Assembly: GCA_044892505.1 (NCBI GenBank)
Contig: CM097883.1
Span: forward strand, 325,872,001-325,936,000
DNA: 64,000 nt
Origin: Schmidtea nova
Taxonomy: Eukaryota
Reading direction: 5' to 3'
Shown here: in pieces, positions 1-64,000 of the stretch
Position numbering within the stretch: position 1 is the stretch's first letter
Layout of the letters: each line of letters starts with the position of its first letter
Made by a program: the position numbers and the translations under genes
Notes under the pieces: model-generated
Seen by the model: only the letters and a program-made list of their open reading frames with translations
Told to the model about the DNA's origin: nothing
The model's database searches: none

Positions 1-1834
1 CCCTCGTGTACTTTAGGAACCACTTCTTGGCTCGACAGTCACGAAAGATTTATTAGAACCTTTACCGTTTTCAATAATTACTTTAAACAAAAAAACTTTA
101 TAACTTTTGAAAAATATAACTAGTTTGTCAAAAGTCAACGTTTCACAACTTTGATTCATCTCAACATTCTACATCAGAGAATAAAATAATAAAATAGTCA
201 AAAAATAGTGAAACATTAAAAAACTTTTAAAGAATGAGATTATTCGACACCATGAAAGTAAAATATGATTTTTACAATTAATTTAAATTCAAATACCAAA
301 AATATATTACATGTGATAATGAAACTCAATTTCGTTTTTAAAGAATTACCTAAAACAACAATAAATTCTACTTTATCTTTCATCGAAACGTCATAGTTGC
401 CCAAAACAAGTACAGTCTCAGACCCGGGTTATCGTTATTAAATGGTCCTAGAAAAACACAATGAAATGAAAAATAACATTATACAAACCAATTCAATATA
501 TTGGTAACATACCACCTGTTTTGATTATTACTTTATTTTGTTGAAAAAAGATAAAATAATGTGAAAATAATTTTATAAAAACAGTACAGCAAAGCTACGC
601 GAAGTTGGAGTGGTGTATGATTATACTGGTGGACTAGAGTTAGAGCGAAACAAAGTTGTCCAGGACAAAGTCAACCGAGTGTGATTGTATTTCATAAACA
701 TGCTATTGAAATTAAAACCGCTTGTTGTAAAGGAATTATTAAATTAGATGTGAACGAATATAATTCTGCTAGATAAAAGAAATACAGCTGACAAACTTTT
801 AGAGAATTTTGTTTGTTACATAAGCTAAATGGTTGAACGACATTTGATTGGATAAAATTTAAAATCATATATACGCTTTGAGTGATATTTTGTCACATTG
901 TCGGCAGAATAATGAACTAAAGTCATATAAACCATTATCTAAACTTTTGAATTATCAGCTTTAAAAATATTTAATTTAAAGTCATCATTCTTTATTAATT
1001 GTACTAATTTAAAATATCAAACAATAAAAATTAAATTAATTTCCAAAGAAATGTCTTTAATTTCTTACTTTACTATTTTGTCTAATTTATCAGAAATCTT
1101 AACACAAGCTATTTTAATATTTCAAGAATTTGTTTTAATATCTCAATGTTTGTAACATTTACAAATTAATTATAAAATAAAAGATTATAAAGTATTGAAA
1201 ACCTTGTTATTGGCTTTGTTGATGTTTTGGAAACATCTGTATTTCGTATTATGACTTTCGAAAAATACAAATAAAATTCCCTAACTTTTCAATAGAAAGA
1301 ATGATAATTGACATCATAGTTGATTAATAAATGTTTATAAATAATTGCCACTTAAATTTAGAAATTTATTCAATTGCATGAAAAACTAGTTTTGGGATAA
1401 ATGTCTAATGATTTGTAAACTAATTGAATAGTTCTTGACTTATTTATTTACTCACATCGATAGATAATATTTTATTGGTCAAATTTTAAAATAAATTTCA
1501 CTAATCCTTGTTTTTAAAAATGAAAACTTTAATTAATGTAAAATCAAGAACATTGTATTTATTTTAATTTTAGTCTTATTTAGAATGGGTGTAACAAATT
1601 TATGATTATAGAACTTTTCGTAAATTTTGAATTTTCATTTGAACTTTATTTCACTCTACATAAATCTCAATAGACCATGTCGTTGGTTGGCTGAAATAGT
1701 TGCCTTTATATTTACATTGCGATTTGCTTTACATAAGCGATTGTATAAATAAAATATTTTTCAAAGTTTTCTAAACAACATAAATAAAATATTTACTATA
1801 TGTGAGACAAATAAACAAACACTTTTAAAATGTC

Positions 1835-1841
1835 TATAAAA
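1835..1841 (+). promoter_or_regulatory. Candidate TATA box of the CAP gene (repeated in every unit)
   Basis: TATAAAA starts 54 nt upstream of the ATG. The AT-rich background makes this weak evidence. Confidence 0.4.
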
Positions 1842-1888
1842 CCATCTATAATTAAAATTAGAAAAGTAATTACAGTTTAAGAAAGAAA

Positions 1889-2717
1889 ATGAGAAATTCT
1901 GTACTATTTGGTATAATGATAAGTGTCGTTATAGCAGTTATCCAGTGTGACGTGACTCCTGACCAACAACAACAATTGATTGATGTTCACAATAAATACC
2001 GTCGAGATGTTGCTCAGGGTAAAATCAGTGGACAACCAGCTGCTGCAAATATGTTGGAATTGGTACGCGATTTCTATCTTATTTCTAAATTCAATAGTTT
2101 CTGGCATGTTTAAACAATCATTGATGTTTCGTTTCAGAAATGGAACGATGAAGCTGCACAAAGAGCTCAAATCTCGGCTGATCGTTGCGTTTTCGAACAT
2201 GATAAATCGAGAAATCGTAGATTCGGAAGTTATGATTGGGTTGGTCAAAATATTGCATACTGGTCAAGCGATGATGTGACAGAGTGAGAAATCAAGCAAA
2301 TGATAGTTTTATTGTTTTCATTTGAATTTTAGCGGTGTCAAGATGTGGTTCGACGAAGTAAAAGATTACACATTCAATGGAGATAGATGTACCGGATTTA
2401 CATGCTTACATTACACAGCTGTAATTTATAATTCCATTTCCAACTGCAATTTATGGCAATTTTGTTCTAGTTAATCTGGGCTAAAACCAAAGAATTCGGA
2501 TGTGGCATTGCAGACTGTTCACGACAAAACTTAGGAAATATCTTCATCGTATGTAATTACGGACCCGGGTAAAGAATTAGATTTTTCGTTGTCGAATATG
2601 ACTGAAATGTGTTTTGTTTTCAGTGGAAATTGGAACAATGAAGCCCCTTATCAAGTTGGTCAAACCTGTTCTAGATGTCCAAATGGAACCCGATGCAACA
2701 ATGGACTATGCAGTTAA
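1889..2717 (+). CDS. Secreted CAP/SCP/TAPS (venom allergen-like, PR-1/CRISP superfamily) protein, copy 1; 5 exons, 199 aa
   Basis: Exons 1889-2062, 2138-2283, 2333-2420, 2471-2568 and 2624-2717 join through GT-AG introns (75, 49, 50, 55 nt; phases 0,2,0,2) into a 600-nt CDS: MRNSVLFGIMISVVIAVIQCDVTPDQQQQLIDVHNKYRRDVAQGKISGQPAAANMLELKWNDEAAQRAQISADRCVFEHDKSRNRRFGSYDWVGQNIAYWSSDDVTDGVKMWFDEVKDYTFNGDRCTGFTCLHYTALIWAKTKEFGCGIADCSRQNLGNIFIVCNYGPGGNWNNEAPYQVGQTCSRCPNGTRCNNGLCS. It has a hydrophobic signal peptide, CAP motifs HNKYR, GQNIA, HYTALIW and VCNYGPGGN, and a Cys-rich hinge. Confidence 0.96.
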
Positions 2718-2726
2718 AACCGAACC

Positions 2727-2732
2727 AATAAA
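2727..2732 (+). terminator. Candidate polyadenylation signal (repeated in every unit)
   Basis: AATAAA lies 9 nt after the stop codon. Further AATAAA copies occur near 2800-2813, so the one actually used is unknown. Confidence 0.45.
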
Positions 2733-4802
2733 TAATTTTTTGAAAATCTTATTAAATACAATTTAAACAAATTTATTCTTATTGTTTTAATTAAATTAAA
2801 ATAAACCAATAAATTATATAAACATATATTTCTGAAACAGAGACAAACATATAACGTTCTTTAAAAGAATTTCTCTGAAAAACATACAGATTTTGATAAT
2901 TCTCAAATATATCACCCTCGTGTACTTTAGGAACCACTTCTTGGCTCGACAGTCACGAAAGATTTATTAGAACCTTTACCGTTTTCAATAATTACTTTAA
3001 ACAAAAAAACTTTATAACTTTTGAAAAATATAACTAGTTTGTCAAAAGTCAACGTTTCACAACTTTGATTCATCTCAACATTCTACATCAGAGAATAAAA
3101 TAATAAAATAGTCAAAAAATAGTGAAACATTAAAAAACTTTTAAAGAATGAGATTATTCGACACCATGAAAGTAAAATATGATTTTTACAATTAATTTAA
3201 ATTCAAATACCAAAAATATATTACATGTGATAATGAAACTCAATTTCGTTTTTAAAGAATTACCTAAAACAACAATAAATTCTACTTTATCTTTCATCGA
3301 AACGTCATAGTTGCCCAAAACAAGTACAGTCTCAGACCCGGGTTATCGTTATTAAATGGTCCTAGAAAAACACAATGAAATGAAAAATAACATTATACAA
3401 ACCAATTCAATATATTGGTAACATACCACCTGTTTTGATTATTACTTTATTTTGTTGAAAAAAGATAAAATAATGTGAAAATAATTTTATAAAAACAGTA
3501 CAGCAAAGCTACGCGAAGTTGGAGTGGTGTATGATTATACTGGTGGACTAGAGTTAGAGCGAAACAAAGTTGTCCAGGACAAAGTCAACCGAGTGTGATT
3601 GTATTTCATAAACATGCTATTGAAATTAAAACCGCTTGTTGTAAAGGAATTATTAAATTAGATGTGAACGAATATAATTCTGCTAGATAAAAGAAATACA
3701 GCTGACAAACTTTTAGAGAATTTTGTTTGTTACATAAGCTAAATGGTTGAACGACATTTGATTGGATAAAATTTAAAATCATATATACGCTTTGAGTGAT
3801 ATTTTGTCACATTGTCGGCAGAATAATGAACTAAAGTCATATAAACCATTATCTAAACTTTTGAATTATCAGCTTTAAAAATATTTAATTTAAAGTCATC
3901 ATTCTTTATTAATTGTACTAATTTAAAATATCAAACAATAAAAATTAAATTAATTTCCAAAGAAATGTCTTTAATTTCTTACTTTACTATTTTGTCTAAT
4001 TTATCAGAAATCTTAACACAAGCTATTTTAATATTTCAAGAATTTGTTTTAATATCTCAATGTTTGTAACATTTACAAATTAATTATAAAATAAAAGATT
4101 ATAAAGTATTGAAAACCTTGTTATTGGCTTTGTTGATGTTTTGGAAACATCTGTATTTCGTATTATGACTTTCGAAAAATACAAATAAAATTCCCTAACT
4201 TTTCAATAGAAAGAATGATAATTGACATCATAGTTGATTAATAAATGTTTATAAATAATTGCCACTTAAATTTAGAAATTTATTCAATTGCATGAAAAAC
4301 TAGTTTTGGGATAAATGTCTAATGATTTGTAAACTAATTGAATAGTTCTTGACTTATTTATTTACTCACATCGATAGATAATATTTTATTGGTCAAATTT
4401 TAAAATAAATTTCACTAATCCTTGTTTTTAAAAATGAAAACTTTAATTAATGTAAAATCAAGAACATTGTATTTATTTTAATTTTAGTCTTATTTAGAAT
4501 GGGTGTAACAAATTTATGATTATAGAACTTTTCGTAAATTTTGAATTTTCATTTGAACTTTATTTCACTCTACATAAATCTCAATAGACCATGTCGTTGG
4601 TTGGCTGAAATAGTTGCCTTTATATTTACATTGCGATTTGCTTTACATAAGCGATTGTATAAATAAAATATTTTTCAAAGTTTTCTAAACAACATAAATA
4701 AAATATTTACTATATGTGAGACAAATAAACAAACACTTTTAAAATGTCTATAAAACCATCTATAATTAAAATTAGAAAAGTAATTACAGTTTAAGAAAGA
4801 AA

Positions 4803-5631
4803 ATGAGAAATTCTGTACTATTTGGTATAATGATAAGTGTCGTTATAGCAGTTATCCAGTGTGACGTGACTCCTGACCAACAACAACAATTGATTGATGT
4901 TCACAATAAATACCGTCGAGATGTTGCTCAGGGTAAAATCAGTGGACAACCAGCTGCTGCAAATATGTTGGAATTGGTACGCGATTTCTATCTTATTTCT
5001 AAATTCAATAGTTTCTGGCATGTTTAAACAATCATTGATGTTTCGTTTCAGAAATGGAACGATGAAGCTGCACAAAGAGCTCAAATCTCGGCTGATCGTT
5101 GCGTTTTCGAACATGATAAATCGAGAAATCGTAGATTCGGAAGTTATGATTGGGTTGGTCAAAATATTGCATACTGGTCAAGCGATGATGTGACAGAGTG
5201 AGAAATCAAGCAAATGATAGTTTTATTGTTTTCATTTGAATTTTAGCGGTGTCAAGATGTGGTTCGACGAAGTAAAAGATTACACATTCAATGGAGATAG
5301 ATGTACCGGATTTACATGCTTACATTACACAGCTGTAATTTATAATTCCATTTCCAACTGCAATTTATGGCAATTTTGTTCTAGTTAATCTGGGCTAAAA
5401 CCAAAGAATTCGGATGTGGCATTGCAGACTGTTCACGACAAAACTTAGGAAATATCTTCATCGTATGTAATTACGGACCCGGGTAAAGAATTAGATTTTT
5501 CGTTGTCGAATATGACTGAAATGTGTTTTGTTTTCAGTGGAAATTGGAACAATGAAGCCCCTTATCAAGTTGGTCAAACCTGTTCTAGATGTCCAAATGG
5601 AACCCGATGCAACAATGGACTATGCAGTTAA
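4803..5631 (+). CDS. CAP/VAL protein, copy 2
   Basis: Same exons and splice sites as copy 1, offset by 2914. Confidence 0.95.
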
Positions 5632-7716
5632 AACCGAACCAATAAATAATTTTTTGAAAATCTTATTAAATACAATTTAAACAAATTTATTCTTATTGTT
5701 TTAATTAAATTAAAATAAACCAATAAATTATATAAACATATATTTCTGAAACAGAGACAAACATATAACGTTCTTTAAAAGAATTTCTCTGAAAAACATA
5801 CAGATTTTGATAATTCTCAAATATATCACCCTCGTGTACTTTAGGAACCACTTCTTGGCTCGACAGTCACGAAAGATTTATTAGAACCTTTACCGTTTTC
5901 AATAATTACTTTAAACAAAAAAACTTTATAACTTTTGAAAAATATAACTAGTTTGTCAAAAGTCAACGTTTCACAACTTTGATTCATCTCAACATTCTAC
6001 ATCAGAGAATAAAATAATAAAATAGTCAAAAAATAGTGAAACATTAAAAAACTTTTAAAGAATGAGATTATTCGACACCATGAAAGTAAAATATGATTTT
6101 TACAATTAATTTAAATTCAAATACCAAAAATATATTACATGTGATAATGAAACTCAATTTCGTTTTTAAAGAATTACCTAAAACAACAATAAATTCTACT
6201 TTATCTTTCATCGAAACGTCATAGTTGCCCAAAACAAGTACAGTCTCAGACCCGGGTTATCGTTATTAAATGGTCCTAGAAAAACACAATGAAATGAAAA
6301 ATAACATTATACAAACCAATTCAATATATTGGTAACATACCACCTGTTTTGATTATTACTTTATTTTGTTGAAAAAAGATAAAATAATGTGAAAATAATT
6401 TTATAAAAACAGTACAGCAAAGCTACGCGAAGTTGGAGTGGTGTATGATTATACTGGTGGACTAGAGTTAGAGCGAAACAAAGTTGTCCAGGACAAAGTC
6501 AACCGAGTGTGATTGTATTTCATAAACATGCTATTGAAATTAAAACCGCTTGTTGTAAAGGAATTATTAAATTAGATGTGAACGAATATAATTCTGCTAG
6601 ATAAAAGAAATACAGCTGACAAACTTTTAGAGAATTTTGTTTGTTACATAAGCTAAATGGTTGAACGACATTTGATTGGATAAAATTTAAAATCATATAT
6701 ACGCTTTGAGTGATATTTTGTCACATTGTCGGCAGAATAATGAACTAAAGTCATATAAACCATTATCTAAACTTTTGAATTATCAGCTTTAAAAATATTT
6801 AATTTAAAGTCATCATTCTTTATTAATTGTACTAATTTAAAATATCAAACAATAAAAATTAAATTAATTTCCAAAGAAATGTCTTTAATTTCTTACTTTA
6901 CTATTTTGTCTAATTTATCAGAAATCTTAACACAAGCTATTTTAATATTTCAAGAATTTGTTTTAATATCTCAATGTTTGTAACATTTACAAATTAATTA
7001 TAAAATAAAAGATTATAAAGTATTGAAAACCTTGTTATTGGCTTTGTTGATGTTTTGGAAACATCTGTATTTCGTATTATGACTTTCGAAAAATACAAAT
7101 AAAATTCCCTAACTTTTCAATAGAAAGAATGATAATTGACATCATAGTTGATTAATAAATGTTTATAAATAATTGCCACTTAAATTTAGAAATTTATTCA
7201 ATTGCATGAAAAACTAGTTTTGGGATAAATGTCTAATGATTTGTAAACTAATTGAATAGTTCTTGACTTATTTATTTACTCACATCGATAGATAATATTT
7301 TATTGGTCAAATTTTAAAATAAATTTCACTAATCCTTGTTTTTAAAAATGAAAACTTTAATTAATGTAAAATCAAGAACATTGTATTTATTTTAATTTTA
7401 GTCTTATTTAGAATGGGTGTAACAAATTTATGATTATAGAACTTTTCGTAAATTTTGAATTTTCATTTGAACTTTATTTCACTCTACATAAATCTCAATA
7501 GACCATGTCGTTGGTTGGCTGAAATAGTTGCCTTTATATTTACATTGCGATTTGCTTTACATAAGCGATTGTATAAATAAAATATTTTTCAAAGTTTTCT
7601 AAACAACATAAATAAAATATTTACTATATGTGAGACAAATAAACAAACACTTTTAAAATGTCTATAAAACCATCTATAATTAAAATTAGAAAAGTAATTA
7701 GAGTTTAAGAAAGAAA

Positions 7717-8545
7717 ATGAGAAATTCTGTACTATTTGGTATAATGATAAGTGTCGTTATAGCAGTTATCCAGTGTGACGTGACTCCTGACCAACAACAA
7801 CAATTGATTGATGTTCACAATAAATACCGTCGAGATGTTGCTCAGGGTAAAATCAGTGGACAACCAGCTGCTGCAAATATGTTGGAATTGGTACGCGATT
7901 TCTATCTTATTTCTAAATTCAATAGTTTCTGGCATGTTTAAACAATCATTGATGTTTCGTTTCAGAAATGGAACGATGAAGCTGCACAAAGAGCTCAAAT
8001 CTCGGCTGATCGTTGCGTTTTCGAACATGATAAATCGAGAAATCGTAGATTCGGAAGTTATGATTGGGTTGGTCAAAATATTGCATACTGGTCAAGCGAT
8101 GATGTGACAGAGTGAGAAATCAAGCAAATGATAGTTTTATTGTTTTCATTTGAATTTTAGCGGTGTCAAGATGTGGTTCGACGAAGTAAAAGATTACACA
8201 TTCAATGGAGATAGATGTACCGGATTTACATGCTTACATTACACAGCTGTAATTTATAATTCCATTTCCAACTGAAATTTATGGCAATTTTGTTCTAGTT
8301 AATCTGGGCTAAAACCAAAGAATTCGGATGTGGCATTGCAGACTGTTCACGACAAAACTTAGGAAATATCTTCATCGTATGTAATTACGGACCCGGGTAA
8401 AGAATTAGATTTTTCGTTGTCGAATATGACTGAAATGTGTTTTGTTTTCAGTGGAAATTGGAACAATGAAGCCCCTTATCAAGTTGGTCAAACCTGTTCT
8501 AGATGTCCAAATGGAACCCGATGCAACAATGGACTATGCAGTTAA
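7717..8545 (+). CDS. CAP/VAL protein, copy 3
   Basis: Same 5-exon structure as copy 1. Confidence 0.95.
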
Positions 8546-10630
8546 AACCGAACCAATAAATAATTTTTTGAAAATCTTATTAAATACAATTTAAACAAAT
8601 TTATTCTTATTGTTTTAATTAAATTAAAATAAACCAATAAATTATATAAACATATATTTCTGAAACCGAGACAAACATATAACGTTCTTTAAAAGAATTT
8701 CTCTGAAAAACATACAGATTTTGATAATTCTCAAATATATCACCCTCGTGTACTTTAGGAACCACTTCTTGGCTCGACAGTCACGAAAGATTTATTAGAA
8801 CCTTTACCGTTTTCAATAATTACTTTAAACAAAAAAACTTTATAACTTTTGAAAAATATAACTAGTTTGTCAAAAGTCAACGTTTCACAACTTTGATTCA
8901 TCTCAACATTCTACATCAGAGAATAAAATAATAAAATAGTCAAAAAATAGTGAAACATTAAAAAACTTTTAAAGAATGAGATTATTCGACACCATGAAAG
9001 TAAAATATGATTTTTACAATTAATTTAAATTCAAATACCAAAAATATATTACATGTGATAATGAAACTCAATTTCGTTTTTAAAGAATTACCTAAAACAA
9101 CAATAAATTCTACTTTATCTTTCATCGAAACGTCATAGTTGCCCAAAACAAGTACAGTCTCAGACCCGGGTTATCGTTATTAAATGGTCCTAGAAAAACA
9201 CAATGAAATGAAAAATAACATTATACAAACCAATTCAATATATTGGTAACATACCACCTGTTTTGATTATTACTTTATTTTGTTGAAAAAAGATAAAATA
9301 ATGTGAAAATAATTTTATAAAAACAGTACAGCAAAGCTACGCGAAGTTGGAGTGGTGTATGATTATACTGGTGGACTAGAGTTAGAGCGAAACAAAGTTG
9401 TCCAGGACAAAGTCAACCGAGTGTGATTGTATTTCATAAACATGCTATTGAAATTAAAACCGCTTGTTGTAAAGGAATTATTAAATTAGATGTGAACGAA
9501 TATAATTCTGCTAGATAAAAGAAATACAGCTGACAAACTTTTAGAGAATTTTGTTTGTTACATAAGCTAAATGGTTGAACGACATTTGATTGGATAAAAT
9601 TTAAAATCATATATACGCTTTGAGTGATATTTTGTCACATTGTCGGCAGAATAATGAACTAAAGTCATATAAACCATTATCTAAACTTTTGAATTATCAG
9701 CTTTAAAAATATTTAATTTAAAGTCATCATTCTTTATTAATTGTACTAATTTAAAATATCAAACAATAAAAATTAAATTAATTTCCAAAGAAATGTCTTT
9801 AATTTCTTACTTTACTATTTTGTCTAATTTATCAGAAATCTTAACACAAGCTATTTTAATATTTCAAGAATTTGTTTTAATATTTCAATGTTTGTAACAT
9901 TTACAAATTAATTATAAAATAAAAGATTATAAAGTATTGAAAACCTTGTTATTGGCTTTGTTGATGTTTTGGAAACATCTGTATTTCGTATTATGACTTT
10001 CGAAAAATACAAATAAAATTCCCTAACTTTTCAATAGAAAGAATGATAATTGACATCATAGTTGATTAATAAATGTTTATAAATAATTGCCACTTAAATT
10101 TAGAAATTTATTCAATTGCATGAAAAACTAGTTTTGGGATAAATGTCTAATGATTTGTAAACTAATTGAATAGTTCTTGACTTATTTATTTACTCACATC
10201 GATAGATAATATTTTATTGGTCAAATTTTAAAATAAATTTCACTAATCCTTGTTTTTAAAAATGAAAACTTTAATTAATGTAAAATCAAGAACATTGTAT
10301 TTATTTTAATTTTAGTCTTATTTAGAATGGGTGTAACAAATTTATGATTATAGAACTTTTCGTAAATTTTGAATTTTCATTTGAACTTTATTTCACTCTA
10401 CATAAATCTCAATAGACCATGTCGTTGGTTGGCTGAAATAGTTGCTTTTATATTTACATTGCGATTTGCTTTACATAAGCGATTGTATAAATAAAATATT
10501 TTTCAAAGTTTTCTAAACAACATAAATAAAATATTTACTATATGTGAGACAAATAAACAAACACTTTTAAAATGTCTATAAAACCATCTATAATTAAAAT
10601 TAGAAAAGTAATTACAGTTTAAGAAAGAAA

Positions 10631-11459
10631 ATGAGAAATTCTGTACTATTTGGTATAATGATAAGTGTCGTTATAGCAGTTATCCAGTGTGACGTGACTC
10701 CTGACCAACAACAACAATTGATTGATGTTCACAATAAATACCGTCGAGATGTTGCTCAGGGTAAAATCAGTGGACAACCAGCTGCTGCAAATATGTTGGA
10801 ATTGGTACGCGATTTCTATCTTATTTCTAAATTCAATAGTTTCTGGCATGTTTAAACAATCATTGATGTTTCGTTTCAGAAATGGAACGATGAAGCTGCA
10901 CAAAGAGCTCAAATCTCGGCTGATCGTTGCGTTTTCGAACATGATAAATCGAGAAATCGTAGATTCGGAAGTTATGATTGGGTTGGTCAAAATATTGCAT
11001 ACTGGTCAAGCGATGATGTGACAGAGTGAGAAATCAAGCAAATGATAGTTTTATTGTTTTCATTTGAATTTTAGCGGTGTCAAGATGTGGTTCGACGAAG
11101 TAAAAGATTACACATTCAATGGAGATAGATGTACCGGATTTACATGCTTACATTACACAGCTGTAATTTATAATTCCATTTCCAACTGAAATTTATGGCA
11201 ATTTTGTTCTAGTTAATCTGGGCTAAAACCAAAGAATTCGGATGTGGCATTGCAGACTGTTCACGACAAAACTTAGGAAATATCTTCATCGTATGTAATT
11301 ACGGACCCGGGTAAAGAATTAGATTTTTCGTTGTCGAATATGACTGAAATGTGTTTTGTTTTCAGTGGAAATTGGAACAATGAAGCCCCTTATCAAGTTG
11401 GTCAAACCTGTTCTAGATGTTCAAATGGAACCCGATGCAACAATGGACTATGCAGTTAA
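10631..11459 (+). CDS. CAP/VAL protein, copy 4 (P188S)
   Basis: Same structure; CCA>TCA at 11421. Confidence 0.95.
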
Positions 11460-49594: not shown

Positions 49595-49703
49595 TGTGAG
49601 ATAATAAGACAATTTAAATATTTATTCAGTCAATAAATCTACTTATTTAAACAACTTTATTTTCTTTTATAAATCATTATTTTAAATTATTCTTCTTTAT
49701 ACA
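49595..49703 (-). repeat. Element A 3' LTR (109 bp)
   Basis: TGTGAGATAA...TTTATACA on the + strand; identical to 53053-53161. Confidence 0.97.
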
Positions 49704-52375: not shown

Positions 52376-53070
52376 CTTTTTGGGATCGAGAGAGACTCCT
52401 GAATATTCTCGATCCCGTTGTCTTTTCCCGATTTACAATATCGGGATTGGTGTCCAAGCATTTCACACCTAGAACATTGAATTTTTTTCTTGTTCGGACA
52501 GTTACGGGCAAAATGATTTTCATTACAAATATAACATTGCATCTTCTTTATCTTCGCCACAAAGGCAGACTGATGTCCATGAGTTAGATTCAGTCGTGAA
52601 ACGATGTCACCGATTGCGTCGATCGTCGTTGATCCTTGTCGTCTCACCTCAGCTGCGATTTCTACTGGCAAGGATTTGATTATAATGTTTATTAAGAGAT
52701 CTCCAGCGTTACAAGCCAGATTCTTCATTTCTGATAAATGAATGTTAATATTGTCCCCGATCTGGAATCTCTTGTTTAACAACTTGGAAAAACATGCTTC
52801 TGGGGGATCGCTGAAAGCTCGTATCAATGATATTTTAATTTCTTCATAACTAATATCTTCGTTTTTCGTTGCTTCCTTCAAGGTGATAAATGCCTTCCCC
52901 TTCATGACAGCAGGTAAAATTTCTTTTTTTCCATTGAATTTGTGAAGCTTGCATATTAATTCAAACTTATCGAACCATTCATCGATTTTCACGGTTTCGC
53001 CGTCAAAACATTCGATTGCATTCAATATATCTTTTATCATGCCCGGATAGCTTGTGAGATAATAAGACAA
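52369..53070 (-). CDS. gag: Element A Gag (start at ATG 53070 inside the LTR, or at ATG 53040 right after the PBS)
   Basis: FDGE..IDEWFDKFE capsid-like N-terminus and two zinc knuckles, CYICNENHFARNC and CSRCEMLGHQSRYC. Confidence 0.92.
   Translation of the reverse strand: MSYYLTSYPGMIKDILNAIECFDGETVKIDEWFDKFELICKLHKFNGKKEILPAVMKGKAFITLKEATKNEDISYEEIKISLIRAFSDPPEACFSKLLNKRFQIGDNINIHLSEMKNLACNAGDLLINIIIKSLPVEIAAEVRRQGSTTIDAIGDIVSRLNLTHGHQSAFVAKIKKMQCYICNENHFARNCPNKKKIQCSRCEMLGHQSRYCKSGKDNGIENIQESLSIPKRC
52382..52429 (-). promoter_or_regulatory. Element A -1 programmed ribosomal frameshift signal
   Basis: G_GGA_AAA heptamer in the gag frame (52429-52423), a 6-nt spacer, then a perfect 10-bp stem GGGATCGAGA/TCTCGATCCC. 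Pol is in the -1 frame and open from 52432. Confidence 0.85.
53041..53052 (-). promoter_or_regulatory. Element A non-canonical primer-binding site AGCTATCCGGGC, complementary to nt 1-12 of tRNA-Lys(UUU)
   Basis: Abuts the 5' LTR with no gap. The + strand reads GCCCGGATAGCT, which is the 5' end of metazoan tRNA-Lys(UUU) as I recall it (GCCCGGAUAGCUCAG...). There is no TGG start. Confidence 0.75.
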
Positions 53071-53161
53071 TTTAAATATTTATTCAGTCAATAAATCTAC
53101 TTATTTAAACAACTTTATTTTCTTTTATAAATCATTATTTTAAATTATTCTTCTTTATACA
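53053..53161 (-). repeat. Element A 5' LTR (109 bp)
   Basis: Identical to 49595-49703. Confidence 0.97.
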
Positions 53162-54231
53162 AGAACCTTTACCGTTTTCAATAATTACTTTAAACAAAAA
53201 AACTTTATAACTTTTGAAAAATATAACTAGTTTGTCAAAAGTCAACGTTTCACAACTTTGATTCATCTCAACATTCTACATCAGAGAATAAAATAATAAA
53301 ATAGTCAAAAAATAGTGAAACATTAAAAAACTTTTAAAGAATGAGATTATTCGACACCATGAAAGTAAAATATGATTTTTACAATTAATTTAAATTCAAA
53401 TACCAAAAATATATTACATGTGATAATGAAACTCAATTTCGTTTTTAAAGAATTACCTAAAACAACAATAAATTCTACTTTATCTTTCATCGAAACGTCA
53501 TAGTTGCCCAAAACAAGTACAGTCTCAGACCCGGGTTATCGTTATTAAATGGTCCTAGAAAAACACAATGAAATGAAAAATAACATTATACAAACCAATT
53601 CAATATATTGGTAACATACCACCTGTTTTGATTATTACTTTATTTTGTTGAAAAAAGATAAAATAATGTGAAAATAATTTTATAAAAACAGTACAGCAAA
53701 GCTACGCGAAGTTGGAGTGGTGTATGATTATACTGGTGGACTAGAGTTAGAGCGAAACAAAGTTGTCCAGGACAAAGTCAACCGAGTGTGATTGTATTTC
53801 ATAAACATGGTATTGAAATTAAAACCGCTTGTTGTAAAGGAATTATTAAATTAGATGTGAACGAATATAATTCTGCTAGATAAAAGAAATACAGCTGACA
53901 AACTTTTAGAGAATTTTGTTTGTTACATAAGCTAAATGGTTGAACGACATTTGATTGGATAAAATTTAAAATCATCTATACGCTTTGAGTGATATTTTGT
54001 CACATTGTCGGCAGAATAATGAACTAAAGTCATATAAACCATTATCTAAACTTTTGAATTATCAGCTTTAAAAATATTTAATTTAAAGTCATCATTCTTT
54101 ATTAATTGTACTAATTTAAAATATCAAACAATAAAAATTAAATTAATTTCCAAAGAAATGTCTTTAATTTCTTACTTTACTATTTTGTCTAATTTTTCAG
54201 AAATCTTAACACAAGCTATTTTAATATTTCA

Positions 54232-54361
54232 AGTAACTATCTTAATATCTGACATCAAAAATAAACAATTTAACAATTGAAAACTTAATATTTATTTTTA
54301 AAAACAACTCCTTCTTGTTGATTATTTAAACAACTTGTTTTTTAATAATCATTACATTACT
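54232..54361 (-). repeat. Element B 3' LTR (130 bp)
   Basis: AGTAA...TTACT terminal inverted repeat, adjacent to the PPT; the first 43 bp are duplicated at 58651. Confidence 0.9.
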
Positions 54362-54372
54362 TTCCCCTCCTC
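54362..54372 (-). promoter_or_regulatory. Element B polypurine tract GAGGAGGGGAA
   Basis: An 11-nt purine run immediately 5' of the 3' LTR, overlapping the pol stop codon. Confidence 0.9.
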
Positions 54373-57148
54373 AACTTTGATGCCATCTCTTCAGCCATTC
54401 TATCCGTCTCGGTCGTCTAGCATCCGGAAATTGTAGCTCGACCTGGTGTTCCGACAAAAATCTAACAATCTTATATGGTCCATCGTATTGTATGTCATTC
54501 TTATTCCTTCTGTGTGGCTCCCGTCGAACCAATACTTCCTCCCCCACTTCAAAAGAACGTTTACCTCTTCGATCTTTTTCTAAAATTCTCATTCTATCTG
54601 CCGCTAGCTTAGCATTCTGAACCACTTTCTCGTCAACTCTTTGGCCTTTGATCTCCGATCCTTGTCCATTGTCATGAAGTGACACTTTCCGTCCATACAC
54701 AATCTCAAATGGAGAATATTTAGTTGCGCTTTGAAACGTCGCATTGATGCTGAATTCCACCCTTGGAAGTATCTCGCACCATTCATATCGCCTGTTGTTA
54801 CTAAGAATTGAAGTCACCAGTAGATCTCTCATCGTGCGAATTACTCTTTCTACCAATCCATTTGATTGATGTTGATATGGTGCTGAGAATTCTTGACGAA
54901 TCCCTAAAACTTCGAATTTCTCTTTCATATATCTGCCTTCAAAATTTTTTCCTCTGTCTGAAAGAATACTTTCTGGCTTTCCATATTTATAAATCCAATT
55001 ATGAAGTATAATCCGGAATATCGTCATTTCGTCTTGCTTCTCTGTCGCAGTTAGGCATACTAATTTACTGAACCGATCTATTATGACAATCACATATCTC
55101 TTTCCGGACCTTGTCTTTTCCATGTGTGCTACATCAACTACGATTTGTTCCAGAAACCCGTTACTTCCGCGTGGAATAAAAAGTTCTTTCGTTCTTCCTT
55201 GATCTATTTTCCTTCTCGCACATATACTACATTCTTTTACAACGTGTCTTACTGTTTCACACATCTTTGGCCAGAAAAAACTATTTTCCATGTAATGAAA
55301 GACTTTTTTTCCCCCCACATGACATAATTCTTCATGAATCTTCTTAACCAGTTGTTTTTGATGGCTCTCTGGAACTGCTACTAAATCATTGGATTCTCTC
55401 TCTACGGTAATTAAGTCATCGTTGATCTTCAATCTGTCTTTGTGAGCATATAGGAAAGATTTCTTGAAAAAATCTTCTTCCTCATTCAAAAATTCATTGA
55501 TATAATTCCATGCTCCTTGAAACCCTTTGTCCTTCTTTTGTTCTTCCATAATTTTCATCATGGTGCCAGTTTTTTGTATCGAATTAATATATCGTACCCT
55601 AGCTCTCTCCTTCTTCGGCTCTTCGTGTTGTGTTTGACATTGTGCGCACAACATTCCTCCAATTCTCGACAATCCATCGGCATTCCCATGTTCTACTCCT
55701 TTCCGATACTGCAATTTAAAATTATATTCTGATAAGTTCACCATCCATGTTTGGAATTGTGGACTTATCGCTTTCTTTGTCGTATTCATAAATACCAGCG
55801 CCTTGTGGTCGGTTCTCGCTATGAACTCCTTCCCATATAAGTATTGACGAAAATAAGTAACAAACTCATGTAATGCCAGCAATTCCTTTCTGGTCACACA
55901 ATACCCTTTTTCGTGTGCTGTGAGATGTCTCGACCCATACGCAATTACTACTTCTTTACCTTCCTCTGTGATTTGACTCAGAACGGCACCTACCGCTTCA
56001 AAACAAGCATCCGTATCTAAGACAAATACCCTGTCCATCCTAGGATAATCCAGTACAGGTGTTTTCATCAGGGCTTCTTTTAAATTCTCGAAACTTGTTT
56101 CACATTTTTGAGACCATTGTAAGGTCTTATCACACCCCGTTGTTGCTGCATATAGTGGTGCTGCCAAACGCGCATAATCTTTGACAAATCTTCGATAGTA
56201 ATTCGTCAGTCCCAAAAATGAGCGCAGTTGTTTCGCACATTTTGGTCTTGTAGCCTCCCTAATCACCCGTATCTTTTCTTCGTTAGTTTGAATCCCGAAC
56301 TCACTCACGGTATGCCCTAAAAATATTAACTTATCTTTGTAGATCTTACATTTCTCCGAATTTATCTTCACGCCAGTACTTCTGATTCTTTCAAAAACTT
56401 CTTTTAGCCGGCTGTCATGTTCCGATTTATTCTTCCCGTATATGAGGATGTCATCTAAATATACCACCGCCCCATTAAAAAGAATACCTTCTAACATAGT
56501 GTTCATGAATCTCTGAAATGTAGCTGGAGCTGTTTTCAATCCGAACGGTAATCGCTCAAAACAGAACTGCCCGCTTTTCGTACTAAACGCGGTTTTCTCC
56601 TGTGACTCTGCTGCCAATGCCACTTGATAATATGCTTGACCCAGATCCAATGATGAGAAAAACTTCGCTCCGGCCAAGTAATCCAGTAGCTGTGTGATAT
56701 TCGGCATCGGAAAAGATTCCTTCTCTGTCAGACTATTTAGACTCCGATAATCCGCACACATTCTGATCGATCTGTCTTTCTTTCCTACTATGACTAATAG
56801 TGCGTTCCATGGACTCTGACATCGCCTGATCACCCTTGCTTCTACTAACTTTTGTATTAAGTCATCTACCTTCCGTTCCAGATACATCGGTTGTCGTCGT
56901 GGATATTGCATCACAGGATTACCAGTCGTTTTAATTTTATGTACTACCGTCGTGGTATATCCTAAATCGAATTTGGTTGCCATAAATATTGAAGCAAAAT
57001 CCGTGATTAATTTCTCGAGCTCGGTATTTTCCTCTTTCAGCAAGTCTGTTTTCGCTTTTAATAGTCGGTCTTTGTCGTTGATGTTTGTCTTGATCTCATT
57101 GTCTTCAATACTTTTCACTTCCACCAGTTGTATGCCGAACGCTTTCAT
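54371..57148 (-). CDS. pol: Element B Pol, uninterrupted RT-RNase H-integrase part (925 codons)
   Basis: RT LDLGQAYYQ, PFGL and YLDD. RNase H TDAC..KELLA..TDH..NADGLSR. Integrase HEELCH..CSIC, VDV, SDRG and VER. Confidence 0.9.
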   Translation of the reverse strand: MKAFGIQLVEVKSIEDNEIKTNINDKDRLLKAKTDLLKEENTELEKLITDFASIFMATKFDLGYTTTVVHKIKTTGNPVMQYPRRQPMYLERKVDDLIQKLVEARVIRRCQSPWNALLVIVGKKDRSIRMCADYRSLNSLTEKESFPMPNITQLLDYLAGAKFFSSLDLGQAYYQVALAAESQEKTAFSTKSGQFCFERLPFGLKTAPATFQRFMNTMLEGILFNGAVVYLDDILIYGKNKSEHDSRLKEVFERIRSTGVKINSEKCKIYKDKLIFLGHTVSEFGIQTNEEKIRVIREATRPKCAKQLRSFLGLTNYYRRFVKDYARLAAPLYAATTGCDKTLQWSQKCETSFENLKEALMKTPVLDYPRMDRVFVLDTDACFEAVGAVLSQITEEGKEVVIAYGSRHLTAHEKGYCVTRKELLALHEFVTYFRQYLYGKEFIARTDHKALVFMNTTKKAISPQFQTWMVNLSEYNFKLQYRKGVEHGNADGLSRIGGMLCAQCQTQHEEPKKERARVRYINSIQKTGTMMKIMEEQKKDKGFQGAWNYINEFLNEEEDFFKKSFLYAHKDRLKINDDLITVERESNDLVAVPESHQKQLVKKIHEELCHVGGKKVFHYMENSFFWPKMCETVRHVVKECSICARRKIDQGRTKELFIPRGSNGFLEQIVVDVAHMEKTRSGKRYVIVIIDRFSKLVCLTATEKQDEMTIFRIILHNWIYKYGKPESILSDRGKNFEGRYMKEKFEVLGIRQEFSAPYQHQSNGLVERVIRTMRDLLVTSILSNNRRYEWCEILPRVEFSINATFQSATKYSPFEIVYGRKVSLHDNGQGSEIKGQRVDEKVVQNAKLAADRMRILEKDRRGKRSFEVGEEVLVRREPHRRNKNDIQYDGPYKIVRFLSEHQVELQFPDARRPRRIEWLKRWHQS

Positions 57149-57445
57149 TGTATCTACTCAACCAATAAATCCTGGTCGAATATCCCTCATAACAACAATA
57201 CATATGTTCCTCTGTTTTTGGTTCCATTTCGCCTCTACCATCGTACGTCACAGTGGTCTTTTACTTCCTGGAAAAACGCCACAAATCGTCAAATCGCTTG
57301 CATCTAACCTCGGTTTTTCGATGTTTATCCATGTTTCTTCATTCATCACTGATATTGATGCCCCCGAATCCCATAACATTTCTACTTCAACCGTATTAAT
57401 AACCATCTTACTCCATTCTCTTCCATCGCTCGTCTGATACTTCAT
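57149..57445 (-). pseudogene. pol: Element B protease region with two in-frame TGA stops
   Basis: LWDSGAS motif, in the same frame as the RT ORF, with TGA at 57250-57248 and 57160-57158. Confidence 0.88.
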
Positions 57446-57486
57446 GCTTCTTCTCCTGTCATTTCGATTTTCTTCATTTATATCTG

Positions 57487-57532
57487 CGATCCCATTGACG
57501 AAATGTGTGCGATGGGATCGTTGGCATTTTTT
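57487..57532 (-). promoter_or_regulatory. Element B -1 programmed ribosomal frameshift signal
   Basis: A_AAA_AAT heptamer in the gag frame (57532-57526), a 5-nt spacer, then a 9-bp stem CGATCCCAT/ATGGGATCG. The -1 frame is open into the protease. Confidence 0.82.
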
Positions 57533-58635
57533 CTTACTTCTACTTCATGTGGTTGGCACTCACTTCCGTATTCATCTCTAAAATCATAACTATTTATCTG
57601 CTGATCCTCCATTTCTTCGTGTATACATGATATCTTCTTGACGTTGGTGTTGTAACCTCGTCGTTCATTCAGAAGGTTACAATTTCTAAAATTGTGTCCG
57701 TTCTTCCCGCAAATCAAACATTTATCCTTTAAAGGGCATTCAAAACGCCTATGTCCTTCTTCTCCGCAACAAAAACATTGACCTGATTTGAGTTCGCATG
57801 GCCTTGGTTCTGGTAACCCCATATGTCTGTTGTATAACCGTTTGGCTATATGTTTCAGAGATACAGTTGGCATCTTCTTTTCACCCGTCTGCTGTCCTTT
57901 CCATCTTTGGGACTCTGGTTGTTCATATCTTCCGTATTCTACTTTGTTTTCGAAACTTCTGGGTTCTTTCCGTATATATGGTCTTTGCTTTCCTCTCTCC
58001 AATTCCTCTCGATTTCTTAGACCCTCTTTGAATTTTTCCGCATATGACATTGGTTTCACTGCCAAAATTTCTTCAGATCTGTCCTCTGTTTTCTCATAAA
58101 TTTTTGCTAAATCATTTCTCTCTTTGTGATCCATCTTAGGTTTCGTCGTAAGTACCTCTTTTAATCTTTTATCTCTCACTCTGTGCATAATAATCTCACT
58201 TACGATTTCTTCCTTTGACAATCCTGAATATAAAACTTCTTCCACGATTTTGAGAACTCGAATCTCGAAAGTAGCAAAACGTTCGTTGTCATCTTGTCTG
58301 ATAGTTGAAAGATCCTTGATTTTATCTAATATTGACTTTTATATAGTGAATGTTTCTATAAACCATTCTCTAGCATCATCCTATGATGTGTCTTCGGTTT
58401 TGAAATTCTTCCACAAGATTGACGCTTCTTCCGATAACAACAAATCAAAAGCTTACGTCCGTTTTAGATCATTTCTTATAATCCACTCATCGATCGCTTT
58501 AATCCATTTTTCTGCTTCCTTAGCGCATCTTCCATCGTATCTACGAATTTCAACGTCTAAGATTTCTTGAGCCTTCTTTGGTAAAACATCTCTTGCTGAT
58601 TTCTTATCTTGGCTACGTGTTTTAACTGCGTTAAT

Positions 58636-58651
58636 TTCGGCGTGGTCGCCA
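58636..58651 (-). promoter_or_regulatory. Element B canonical PBS TGGCGACCACGCCGAA (tRNA-Arg type)
   Basis: Starts with TGG, sharing its T with the last LTR base. TGGCGACC is complementary to the GGTCG-CCA 3' end of tRNA-Arg. Confidence 0.8.
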
Positions 58652-58693
58652 GTAACTATCTTAATATCTGACATCAAAAATAAACAATTTAAC
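58651..58693 (-). repeat. Element B 5' LTR remnant (PBS-proximal 43 of 130 bp)
   Basis: Identical to 54232-54274, then joins host spacer sequence at an AAC microhomology. Confidence 0.9.
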
Positions 58694-59379
58694 TTTGTTA
58701 TTGGCTTTGTTGATGTTTTGGAAACATCTGTATTTCGTATTATGACTTTCGAAAAATACAAATAAAATTCCCTAACTTTTCAATAGAAAGAATGATAACT
58801 GACATCATAGTTGATTAATAAATGTTTATAAATAATTGCCACTTAAATTTAGAAATTTATTCAATTGCATGAAAATCTAGTTTTGGGATAAATGTCTAAT
58901 GATTTGTAAACTAATTGAATAGTTCTTGACTTATTTATTTACTCACATCGATAGATAATATTTTATTGGTCAAATTTTAAAATAAATTTCACTAATCCTT
59001 GTTTTTAAAAATGAAAACTTTAATTAATGTAAAATCAAGAACATTGTATTTATTTTAATTTTAGTCCTATTTAGAATGGGTGTAACAAATTTATGATTAT
59101 AGAACTTTTCGTAAATTTTGAATTTTCATTTGAACTTTATTTCACTCTACATAAATCTCAATAGACCATGTCGTTGGTTGGCTGAAATAGTTGCTTTTAT
59201 ATTTACATTGCGATTTGCTTTACATAAGCGATTGTATAAATAAAATATTTTTCAAAGTTTTCTAAACAACATAAATAAAATATTTACTATATGTGAGACA
59301 AATAAACAAACACTTTTAAAATGTCTATAAAACCATCTATAATTAAAATTAGAAAAGTAATTACAGTTTAAGAAAGAAA

Positions 59380-60208
59380 ATGAGAAATTCTGTACTATTT
59401 GGTATAATGATAAGTGTCGTTATAGCAGTTATCCAGTGTGACGTGACTCCTGACCAACAACAACAATTGATTGATGTTCACAATAAATACCGTCGAGATG
59501 TTGCTCAGGGTAAAATCAGTGGACAACCAGCTGCTGCAAATATGTTGGAATTGGTACGCGATTTCTATCTTATTTCTAAATTCAATAGTTTCTGGCATGT
59601 TTAAACAATCATTGATGTTTCGTTTCAGAAATGGAACGATGAAGCTGCACAAAGAGCTCAAATCTCGGCTGATCGTTGCGTTTTCGAACATGATAAATCG
59701 AGAAATCGTAGATTCGGAAGTTATGATTGGGTTGGTCAAAATATTGCATACTGGTCAAGCGATGATGTGACAGAGTGAGAAATCAAGCAAATGATAGTTT
59801 TATTGTTTTCATTTGAATTTTAGCGGTGTCAAGATGTGGTTCGACGAAGTAAAAGATTACACATTCAATGGAGATAGATGTACCGGATTTACATGCTTAC
59901 ATTACACAGCTGTAATTTATAATTCCATTTCCAACTGAAATTTATGGCAATTTTGTTCTAGTTAATCTGGGCTAAAACCAAAGAATTCGGATGTGGCATT
60001 GCAGACTGTTCACGACAAAACTTAGGAAATATCTTCATCGTATGTAATTACGGACCCGGGTAAAGAATTAGATTTTTCGTTGTCGAATATGACTGAAATG
60101 TGTTTTGTTTTCAGTGGAAATTGGAACAATGAAGCCCCTTATCAAGTTGGTCAAACCTGTTCTAGATGTCCAAATGGAACCCGATGCAACAATGGACTAT
60201 GCAGTTAA
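59380..60208 (+). CDS. CAP/VAL protein, copy 18 (upstream spacer carries both LTR elements)
   Basis: Same 5-exon structure; 686 bp of proximal upstream spacer (58694-59379) is retained. Confidence 0.95.
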
Positions 60209-62293
60209 AACCGAACCAATAAATAATTTTTTGAAAATCTTATTAAATACAATTTAAACAAATTTATTCTTATTGTTTTAATTAAATTAAAATAAATTAA
60301 TAAATTATATAAACATATATTTCTGAAACAGAGACAAACATATAACGTTCTTTAAAAGAATTTCTCTGAAAAACATACAGATTTTGATAATTCTCAAATA
60401 TATCACCCTCGTGTACTTTAGGAACCACTTCTTGGCTCGACAATCACGAAAGATTTATTAGAACCTTTACCGTTTTCAATAATTACTTTAAACAAAAAAA
60501 CTTTATAACTTTTGAAAAATATAACTAGTTTGTCAAAAGTCAACGTTTCACAACTTTGATTCATCTCAACATTCTACATCAGAGAATAAAATAATAAAAT
60601 AGTCAAAAAATAGTGAAACATTAAAAAACTTTTAAAGAATGAGATTATTCGACACCATGAAAGTAAAATATGATTTTTACAATTAATTTAAATTCAAATA
60701 CCAAAAATATATTACATGTGATAATGAAACTCAATTTCGTTTTTAAAGAATTACCTAAAACAACAATAAATTCTACTTTATCTTTCATCGAAACGTCATA
60801 GTTGCCCAAAACAAGTACAGTCTCAGACCCGGGTTATCGTTATTAAATGGTCCTAGAAAAACACAATGAAATGAAAAATAACATTATACAAACCAATTCA
60901 ATATATTGGTAACATACCACCTGTTTTGATTATTACTTTATTTTGTTGAAAAAAGATAAAATAATGTGAAAATAATTTTATAAAAACAGTACAGCAAAGC
61001 TACGCGAAGTTGGAGTGGTGTATGATTATACTGGTGGACTAGAGTTAGAGCGAAACAAAGTTGTCCAGGACAAAGTCAACCGAGTGTGATTGTATTTCAT
61101 AAACATGGTATTGAAATTAAAACCGCTTGTTGTAAAGGAATTATTAAATTAGATGTGAACGAATATAATTCTGCTAGATAAAAGAAATACAGCTGACAAA
61201 CTTTTAGAGAATTTTGTTTGTTACATAAGCTAAATGGTTGAACGACATTTGATTGGATAAAATTTAAAATCTTCTATACGCTTTGAGTGATATTTTGTCA
61301 CATTGTCGGCAGAATAATGAACTAAAGTCATATAAACCATTATCTAAACTTTTGAATTATCAGCTTTAAAAATATTTAATTTAAAGTCATCATTCTTTAT
61401 TAATTGTACTAATTTAAAATATCAAACAATAAAAATTAAATTAATTTCCAAAGAAATGTCTTTAATTTCTTACTTTACTATTTTGTCTAATTTTTCAGAA
61501 ATCTTAACACAAGCTATTTTAATATTTCAAGAATTTGTTTTAATATTACAATGTTTGTAACATTTACAAATTAATTATAAAATAAAAGATTATAAAGTAT
61601 TGAAAACTTTGTTATTGGCTTTGTTGATGTTTTGGAAACATCTGTATTTCGTATTATGACTTTCGAAAAATACAAATAAAATTCCCTAACTTTTCAATAG
61701 AAAGAATGATAACTGACATCATAGTTGATTAATAAATGTTTATAAATAATTGCCACTTAAATTTAGAAATTTATTCAATTGCATGAAAAACTAGTTTTGG
61801 GATAAATGTCTAATGATTTGTAAACTAATTGAATAGTTCTTGACTTATTTATTTACTCACATCGATAGATAATATTTTATTGGTCAAATTTTAAAATAAA
61901 TTTCACTAATCCTTGTTTTTAAAAATGAAAACTTTAATTAATGTAAAATCAAGAACATTGTATTTATTTTAATTTTAGTCTTATTTAGAATGGGTGTAAC
62001 AAATTTATGATTATAGAACTTTTCGTAAATTTTGAATTTTCATTTGAACTTTATTTCACTCTACATAAATCTCAATAGACCATGTCGTTGGTTGGCTGAA
62101 ATAGTTGCTTTTATATTTACATTGCGATTTGCTTTACATAAGCGATTGTATAAATAAAATATTTTTCAAAGTTTTCTAAACAACATAAATAAAATATTTA
62201 CTATATGTGAGACAAATAAACAAACACTTTTAAAATGTCTATAAAACCATCTATAATTAAAATAAGAAAAGTAATTACAGCTTAAGAAAGAAA

Positions 62294-63122
62294 ATGAGAA
62301 ATTCTGTACTATTTGGTATAATGATAAGTGTCGTTATAGCAGTTATCCAGTGTGACGTGACTCCTGACCAACAACAACAATTGATTGATGTTCACAATAA
62401 ATACCGTCGAGATGTTGCTCAGGGTAAAATCAGTGGACAACCAGCTGCTGCAAATATGTTGGAATTGGTACGCGATTTCTATCTTATTTCTAAATTCAAT
62501 AGTTTCTGGCATGTTTAAACAATCATTGATGTTTCGTTTCAGAAATGGAACGATGAAGCTGCACAAAGAGCTCAAATCTCGGCTGATCGTTGCGTTTTCG
62601 AACATGATAAATCGAGAAATCGTAGATTCGGAAGTTATGATTGGGTTGGTCAAAATATTGCATACTGGTCAAGCGATGATGTGACAGAGTGAGAAATCAA
62701 GCAAATGATAGTTTTATTGTTTTCATTTGAATTTTAGCGGTGTCAAGATGTGGTTCGACGAAGTAAAAGATTACACATTCAATGGAGATAGATGTACCGG
62801 ATTTACATGCTTACATTACACAGCTGTAATTTATAATTCCATTTCCAACTGAAATTTATGGCAATTTTGTTCTAGTTAATCTGGGCTAAAACCAAAGAAT
62901 TCGGATGTGGCATTGCAGACTGTTCACGACAAAACTTAGGAAATATCTTCATCGTATGTAATTACGGACCCGGGTAAAGAATTAGATTTTTCGTTGTCGA
63001 ATATGACTGAAATGTGTTTTGTTTTCAGTGGAAATTGGAACAATGAAACCCCTTATCAAGTTGGTCAAACCTGTTCTAGATGTCCAAATGGAACCCGATG
63101 CAACAATGGACTATGCAGTTAA
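62294..63122 (+). CDS. CAP/VAL protein, copy 19 (A176T)
   Basis: Same structure; GCC>ACC at 63048. Confidence 0.95.
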
Positions 63123-64000
63123 AACCGAACCAATAAATAATTTTTTGAAAATCTTATTAAATACAATTTAAACAAATTTATTCTTATTGTTTTAATTAAA
63201 TTAAAATAAACCAATAAATTATATAAACATATATTTCTGAAACAGAGACAAACATATAACGTTCTTTAAAAGAATTTCTCTGAAAAACATACAGATTTTG
63301 ATAATTCTCAAATATATCACCCTCGTGTACTTTAGGAACCACTTCTTGGCTCGACAGTCACGAAAGATTTATTAGAACCTTTGCCGTTTTCAATAATTAC
63401 TTTAAACAAAAAAACTTTATAACTTTTGAAAAATATAACTAGTTTGTCAAAAGTCAACGTTTCACAACTTTGATTCATCTCAACATTCTACATCAGAGAA
63501 TAAAATAATAAAATAGTCAAAAAATAGTGAAACATTAAAAAACTTTTAAAGAATGAGATTATTCGACACCATGAAAGTAAAATATGATTTTTACAATTAA
63601 TTTAAATTCAAATACCAAAAATATATTACATGTGATAATGAAACTCAATTTCGTTTTTAAAGAATTACCTAAAACAACAATAAATTCTACTTTATCTTTC
63701 ATCGAAACGTCATAGTTGCCCAAAACAAGTACAGTCTCAGACCCGGGTTATCGTTATTAAATGGTCCTAGAAAAACACAATGAAATGAAAAATAACATTA
63801 TACAAACCAATTCAATATATTGGTAACATACCACCTGTTTTGATTATTACTTTATTTTGTTGAAAAAAGATAAAATAATGTGAAAATAATTTTATAAAAA
63901 CAGTACAGCAAAGCTACGCGAAGTTGGAGTGGTGTATGATTATACTGGTGGACTAGAGTTAGAGCGAAACAAAGTTGTCCAGGACAAAGTCAACCGAGTG

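Follow-up and report, generated by a model that had tools for sequence, protein, structure and literature searches.

CAP/VAL proteins are ubiquitous in worm secretions, and what they do there is largely unresolved. The described arrangement of their genes that comes nearest to the one reported here is the SCP/TAPS array of Lucilia cuprina, a long head-to-tail CAP array with ~3-kb spacing and a shared exon structure, which holds 16 genes of 60-95% amino-acid similarity in 53 kb and was called larger than any CAP array seen before it (PMC7694928). We describe a stretch of 64,000 nucleotides from Schmidtea nova (GenBank assembly GCA_044892505.1, contig CM097883.1, positions 325,872,001 to 325,936,000 of the forward strand; hereafter the window, with position 1 as its first letter) that belongs to a far more uniform array, with 41 genes in 147 kb, 99-100% identity, and introns and spacers that are near-identical as well. 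The Lucilia array genes are transcribed according to published data (PMC7694928). Our proposal, to which we give an even chance, is that this 147-kb array of 41 intact, 99.7%-identical CAP/VAL genes arose, and stays homogeneous, through recurrent unequal exchange and gene conversion between its units, and that it raises the output of a predicted secreted protein.

CT47, GAGE, DUB3/USP17 (RS447) and TSPY are cancer/testis or intracellular genes. As human macrosatellites they resemble the flatworm array in having one gene per 2.5-20 kb unit, >99% identity and tens of copies (PMC2588610), while differing in being mammalian and in that the flatworm array encodes a predicted secreted CAP protein. 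With one gene per >2-kb unit and >99% identity, the array has the features of the gene-bearing macrosatellites of the Table 2A type in that source. Near-identical long arrays had been presented in a first-pass annotation of the window as typical of ribosomal DNA (rDNA) and histone genes; the published human arrays illustrate that they are not confined to these (PMC2588610). What rDNA and histone arrays and the Drosophila Rsp satellite do share with the flatworm locus is homogenised units together with their spacers, similarity falling with distance, variant ends and recent transposon insertions (PMC5411766), and we find coding and non-coding near-identity, a distance gradient, recombinant units and a variant end, the last at the left only. 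Where rDNA and histone arrays repeat a housekeeping RNA or a histone gene, this one repeats a lineage-restricted gene with five exons, and it has far fewer units. The published VAL expansions (51 in S. mediterranea) are of distinct sequences after 98% clustering (PMC3435950), and the only identical VAL pair that we found reported is SmVAL7/SmVAL32 (PMC11854430). Since clustering of transcriptomes at 98% would count the array as one gene, such arrays may be under-reported. No report of a CAP array with 41 copies at 99.7% identity and homogenised introns and spacers was found in a literature search that covered few subscription papers. Thus, >99% one-gene-per-unit arrays (in human) and diverged CAP arrays are already known, their combination in a flatworm was not found in the literature searched, and no CAP array in that literature would match this one in size or uniformity.

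Compared with itself, the window matches best at a lag of 2,914 and its multiples, and 19 ATG start codons of the array gene are present, as the first-pass annotation had counted; Tandem Repeats Finder returned no rows for the window because its maximum period is 500. The window opens with 17 units in head-to-tail order, each 2,913-2,914 bp long and with a single gene, followed by 59 bp of the next spacer (1..49594, + strand), with start codons at 1889, 4803, 7717, 10631, 13545, 16459, 19373, 22287 and 25201 in the first nine units and at 28115, 31029, 33943, 36856, 39770, 42684, 45597 and 48510 in the last eight. Unit 1 matches 17 successive units up to 49,535, after which come a spacer with two insertions and two further genes (58691..64000, + strand, ATG at 59380 and 62294). 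The annotation had drawn the array across all of the window; this stands for most of it, and fails for 49,595-53,161 and 54,232-58,693, which are long terminal repeat (LTR) retrotransposons. The introns and ~2.1-kb spacers were rightly described as near-identical, the units in the window being 99.3-100% identical to unit 1 with the spacer included. The array was also rightly said to leave the window at both ends: when 100 kb was added on each side, its boundaries fell at window-relative -44,866 and 102,342 (44.9 kb upstream and 38.3 kb downstream of the window), a span of 147 kb on a 456-Mb contig of a 1.25-Gb genome. This span contains 41 complete genes and one 3′ gene fragment at its left end, and the outer parts of the added sequence, 55 kb upstream and 62 kb downstream, gave no further unit match. 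The right end lies inside a spacer, at a fragment that we take to be mariner-like.

In all 41 complete copies (19 of them in the window) the open frame and all four GT-AG splice pairs are intact, which extends the earlier reading of intact copies to the whole array. The reference copy (1889..2717, + strand) has five exons (1889-2062, 2138-2283, 2333-2420, 2471-2568 and 2624-2717), separated by GT-AG introns of 75, 49, 50 and 55 bp, and its product has 199 amino acids. A TATA-like site, by consensus match, lies 54 bp before the ATG (1835..1841, + strand), with another at 1744, while the likely 3′ untranslated region (2718..2894, + strand; AATAAA at 2800 and 2808) can be aligned to the 3′ flank of a single-copy sister gene, L021. 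In the remainder of the ~2.1-kb spacer (2915..4802, + strand), unit positions 335-759 have a colinear match to DNA upstream of a relic gene, L023. Across units, 52 of the 2,914 columns vary, and the copies encode nine protein variants, the commonest from 18 of the 41; one replacement, A176T, is present in ~11 of the 41.

An artefact in which a few copies have been over-expanded by the assembler is very improbable. Short-read evidence comes from Logan contigs of four public runs of one study, representing at most three samples. All four runs have contigs that cross from the end of one unit into the start of the next, and the short-read letters that differ from unit 1 fall, in nine of nine cases, on columns that are variable in the assembly. 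In the deepest run (X3), the variant fractions at three such columns (1300/1900, 1400/2000 and 1295/1995, or 0.68, 0.70 and 0.65) reproduce those of the assembly (27/41, 27/41 and 26/41), and unit contigs have a depth of 1,805-1,985 against 37.4 and 39.3 for flank contigs of 573 bp and 301 bp, a ratio of 46-53, although contig depth is a rough check and not a measure of copy number. Together, these two results make over-assembly unlikely. The first-pass annotation had named a read depth indicating few copies as the sign of an artefact, and the depth check excludes a few copies. In favour of over-expansion are the ratios of two shallow runs (25-35), which lie below 41, and the fact that no read spanning the array was seen; the shallow-run baselines of 4-5 were likely inflated by an abundance floor, and the fourth run is without a usable baseline contig. 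Over-expansion also sits poorly with the 30 distinct units among 39, which are distinguished mostly by substitutions, and with unique insertions whose target duplications anchor the interior of the array. Two points weigh on the side of caution, namely that all four runs come from one study and that the assembled sample may be among them. No intron-skipping joints were present in the four runs, whose library type is unrecorded and none of which is listed as RNA.

How the units differ is informative about how they came to be so similar. Pairwise divergence between units averages 0.30% and reaches at most 0.64%, spacers included, with 30 distinct sequences among the 39 full units and a diversity (π) of 0.0018 in coding sequence, 0.0020 in introns and 0.0034 in spacers. 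Differences grow steadily with distance: they number 3.6 at lag 1 and 11.4 by lag 35, and a Mantel test gives rho 0.58 with p 0.0002. Of the 48 substitution sites, 32 have variants that recur in more than one unit, in positional blocks, and the four-gamete test is violated by 60 of 496 site pairs; among eight groups of identical units, three are of adjacent units and five of units two or three apart. The left-edge fragment starts within exon 3 and carries 7 private differences in 533 bp (0.09 expected), six of them in the outer 145 bp, and none of the other complete copies has as many private columns as the isolated first unit. Distance-dependent similarity together with variant ends was attributed by Khost et al. 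to concerted evolution by unequal crossing-over and conversion (PMC5411766). The pattern here supports ongoing unequal exchange rather than a single burst, which backs the earlier suggestion of recent amplification or concerted evolution and narrows it, by way of the gradient, the recombinants and the decayed edge, towards exchange that continues.

A single burst would mean that most copies were made very recently from one gene, by rolling-circle or break-induced replication, with little turnover since. In its favour are the exact 2,914-bp period with few indels and the lack of divergence at the right edge; moreover, with the three inserted elements ~0-1% from copies outside, nothing in the array is demonstrably old. 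However, a burst would leave private variants only, and the shared, block-wise variants, the recombinant site pairs and the decayed left edge run counter to it; that this edge begins in exon 3 and has decayed means that a tandem copy existed earlier. We therefore disfavour the burst and regard it as a minor possibility. Continuing exchange has difficulties of its own: the right array edge is undiverged, the left-edge mutations could stem from error-prone repair at a break, up to 4 (shared) differences from the majority occur within 145 bp in interior units too, and none of the three insertions is old. Should exchange be the mechanism, an old duplicate of the sister gene would have become a tandem pair, after which misaligned exchange would add or remove one to three units at a time, so that new variants spread to nearby units and old ones were lost; the cut left edge would have fallen out of this process, and the transposons would have arrived late.

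The inserted elements occupy spacers. Two LTR retrotransposons in one spacer make up ~12.5% of the window (8 kb). The first (49595..53161, - strand) has identical 109-bp LTRs, a 5-bp target duplication and open reading frames of 236 and 911 amino acids (reverse transcriptase, RNase H-like and integrase). The second (54232..58693, - strand) carries a 928-amino-acid reverse transcriptase/RNase H/integrase frame, has one LTR cut to 43 bp, is accompanied by the loss of ~75 bp of host spacer, and is identical over 1,501 bp to another copy in the genome. Its termini are AGT...ACT rather than TG...CA, and its family is very young and abundant (2,145 first-look candidates in the genome). The spacer segment between the two (53162..54231, + strand) is identical to the majority unit. 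Outside the window, the first gene of the array is set apart from the other 40 by an 18.1-kb element (window-relative -41,206 to -23,101). It has terminal inverted repeats, polymerase-like frames and a 6-bp target duplication, and by its features it is presumably a Polinton/Maverick. Its family is large and young, with 3,194 first-look candidates and best copies >99% over 1.5 kb, and a related element lies 110-129 kb downstream. All three insertions are ~0-1% from copies elsewhere in the genome. The Polinton-like insertion was considered as a clock for the array and dropped, its inverted repeats differing by 28 substitutions (siblings 11 and 4) yet its body being ~0.4-2% from its siblings; the LTR elements were likewise dropped as old array markers, both being young. 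Because all of the insertions are young, only the decayed left edge sets a bound on how old the array is. As a separate observation, ~115 bp of spacer (unit positions 1,089-1,203) contain the right array end (unit position 1,141), the second insertion site (~1,125), a 1-bp deletion that is shared, and several of the variants that define blocks, possibly a fragile or exchange-prone site, or a chance cluster.

The 199-residue array product has a hydrophobic N-terminus, a CAP domain and a four-cysteine tail. Two of its four exon-level pieces score above the Pfam PF00188 cut-off of 21.1 (21.2 and 23.6 bits), and its closest database protein, P0001, which is identical at 156 of 199 positions (78%) without gaps, scores 78.2 bits. 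After P0001, the next relatives are Schistosoma VALs at 35-58% identity, and relatives with solved structures include Ves v 5 and SmVAL4; among the best 150 matches of a representative-sequence search, nothing exceeded 53% identity. The CAP3 and CAP4 motifs, defined as HNxxR and G(E/Q)N(I/L/V) (PMC4118828), correspond to HNKYR at 34-38 and GQNI at 94-97 of the spliced product. The six core cysteines (C75, C126, C131, C147, C152 and C164) are the set for three conserved disulphides, as residues in the sequence. Histidines H79 and H133 are kept and, by way of P0001, both align to Ves v 5 histidines; we take them to be the metal-binding cavity pair. Retention of both cavity histidines sets the array protein apart from SmVAL4 (PMC4118828). 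The tail, C184-X2-C187-X5-C193-X4-C198, has a last spacing one short of the printed M sequence, C-X2-C-X5-10-C-X5-15-C, and a four-cysteine tail is typical of turbellarian VALs and lost in trematode VALs (PMC3435950). Judged by eye, the N-terminus is signal-peptide-like, with a charged start and hydrophobic residues 5-18. As to the alpha-beta-alpha fold of the CAP superfamily, an Atlas model of P0001 (predicted TM score 0.86) aligns with CAP proteins at TM 0.79-0.82, as the model of a relative and not of the array product itself; a single-sequence fold model of P0001, with a predicted local distance difference test (pLDDT) of 37.5, was useless. In its single CAP domain and six core cysteines, and perhaps in its signal-peptide-like start and four-cysteine tail, the product is like the group 1 VALs of Platyhelminthes (PMC3435950). 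The CAP/VAL assignment made from the first look thus finds support in the domain matches and relatives, and the product appears to be a group-1-like VAL/CAP protein that is predicted to be secreted.

The ancestry of the array gene can be approached through its relatives in the same genome. The sister gene L021, a single intact gene 1.34 Mb from the array, has the same five exon lengths, and its protein is identical to the array protein at 149 of 199 positions, with dN (nonsynonymous divergence) 0.146 and dS (synonymous divergence) 0.65 (dN/dS ~0.23), and to P0001 at 179 of 199. In a tree of 14 proteins, P0001 groups with L021 (94/90), and these two together are sister to the array gene (82/96); the star support level is reached by neither branch. 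This branching makes it likely that the array lineage is older than the divergence from the source of P0001. A relic 1.1 Mb off (L023:4468-4728, G000:C2:324.707 Mb) matches exon 1 at 159 of 174 positions, has a stop at codon 19, and retains a colinear piece of the array spacer. The low dN/dS suggests that the array-gene lineage has long been under purifying selection, and this, together with the retained CAP motifs and cavity histidines and the conserved 3′ flank, argues for a working gene. The array protein seemed at first to evolve fast, in that taking P0001 as outgroup placed 33 changes on the array side and 10 on that of the sister, a reading that we reject, since P0001 groups with L021; with true outgroups, the rate test gave chi-square <1.4 in 11 of 11 comparisons, and branch dN is 0.066 against 0.068, the saturated dS to L022 being left out of the branch comparison. 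The array protein is acidic, with a mature isoelectric point of 5.9 against 8.5 for the sister, and has a new N-glycosylation sequon at 189. Genome searches scored best candidates only: ten paralogues modelled from 20 loci included none in a head-to-tail array within its 10-kb stretch, and a spacer search recovered only array copies among the best 40 of 77 candidates.

Why there are so many copies is a separate question from how they are kept alike. Under the dosage proposal, many copies would be transcribed and their number favoured. Between dosage of a secreted product and neutral drift, dosage seems to us slightly likelier, with drift close behind, given that each unit comprises a single whole gene together with its flanks and, by analogy, that arrayed Lucilia CAP genes are transcribed more highly than the other CAP genes (PMC7694928). 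The first-pass annotation had likewise inferred high dosage of a secreted product; the data neither support nor refute this, the intact frames on which it leans being no more than neutrality would give. Several results weigh against this preference. Disabling mutations number 0 where 1.6 are expected under neutrality (P 0.19), variable coding sites number 8 against 11.5 expected (P 0.19), all eight coding variants are missense (P 0.16), and the commonest protein is the product of no more than 18 of the 41 copies. The internal insertions are in spacers in three of three cases, but spacers already make up ~72% of the unit. Copy number of human arrays rarely tracked expression of their own gene in the one cell type tested, and large repeat arrays can undergo repeat-induced silencing (PMC4063668). 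The data thus show no selection on copy number, on which purifying selection and the 3′ flank are silent.

These results leave a substantial, though lesser, probability to drift, in which a genuine array of a functional gene turns over by unequal exchange as a gene-bearing macrosatellite whose copy number wanders at random, under neutrality or close to it, with many of the copies perhaps silent. The all-missense coding variants and the non-significant intactness amount to no signal of purifying selection among the copies, the region is rich in young transposons and other duplications, and silencing of large arrays has been described (PMC4063668). Drift fits less well with a unit that is almost exactly one gene plus its upstream and 3′ flanks, with three internal insertions that all spare genes, and with coding diversity about half that of the spacer (0.0018 against 0.0034), none of which is significant alone. 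A stronger form of the dosage proposal is rather doubtful: the array could be a dosage locus in the style of rDNA, with ~40-50 co-expressed, actively homogenised five-exon genes selected to flood one secretion with acidic CAP protein, while the basic single-copy sister keeps the old role. The secretion may be mucus, a gland product, cocoon or prey-capture material, and, if such a locus were confirmed, it would indicate the cell type and job of a CAP family whose function is still open. Planarian CAP proteins have been predicted as toxins and detected by proteomics (preprint 10.1101/2025.01.09.632098), and sterol binding has been demonstrated for SmVAL4 (PMC4118828). In essence, the array is real, the mechanism of its homogenisation is well supported, and its proposed purpose is conjectural.

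The locus would be of practical use as well. RNA interference (RNAi) of planarian CAP/VAL genes is hampered by redundancy among diverged paralogues (PMC3435950); here a single RNAi trigger would hit all 41 copies in what is likely a tractable animal, with the single-copy sister as a built-in comparison. Since the array is fully resolved, its variants are mapped and three insertions in it are dated, it also offers a clean case for measuring how an intron-containing gene is homogenised by unequal exchange.

Other VAL genes and neighbours were noted in passing. L026, L027 and L028 (G000:C2:111.78-111.89 Mb) are VAL genes that are 94-98% identical over 2 kb and lie 30-80 kb apart, one of them inverted, and constitute a second, small recent VAL expansion. 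L039 (G000:C2:362.78 Mb) yields a 259-residue VAL model whose C-terminal extension resembles, by eye, a fibronectin type 2 domain such as turbellarian VALs have been reported to carry. Upstream of the array (L002-L004, window-relative -87,427 to -65,341) are three intronless frames resembling mitochondrial dicarboxylate carriers, two of which form a 97%-identical inverted duplicate; the best named matches of the neighbouring carrier gene are flatworm proteins, a Schmidtea paralogue first.

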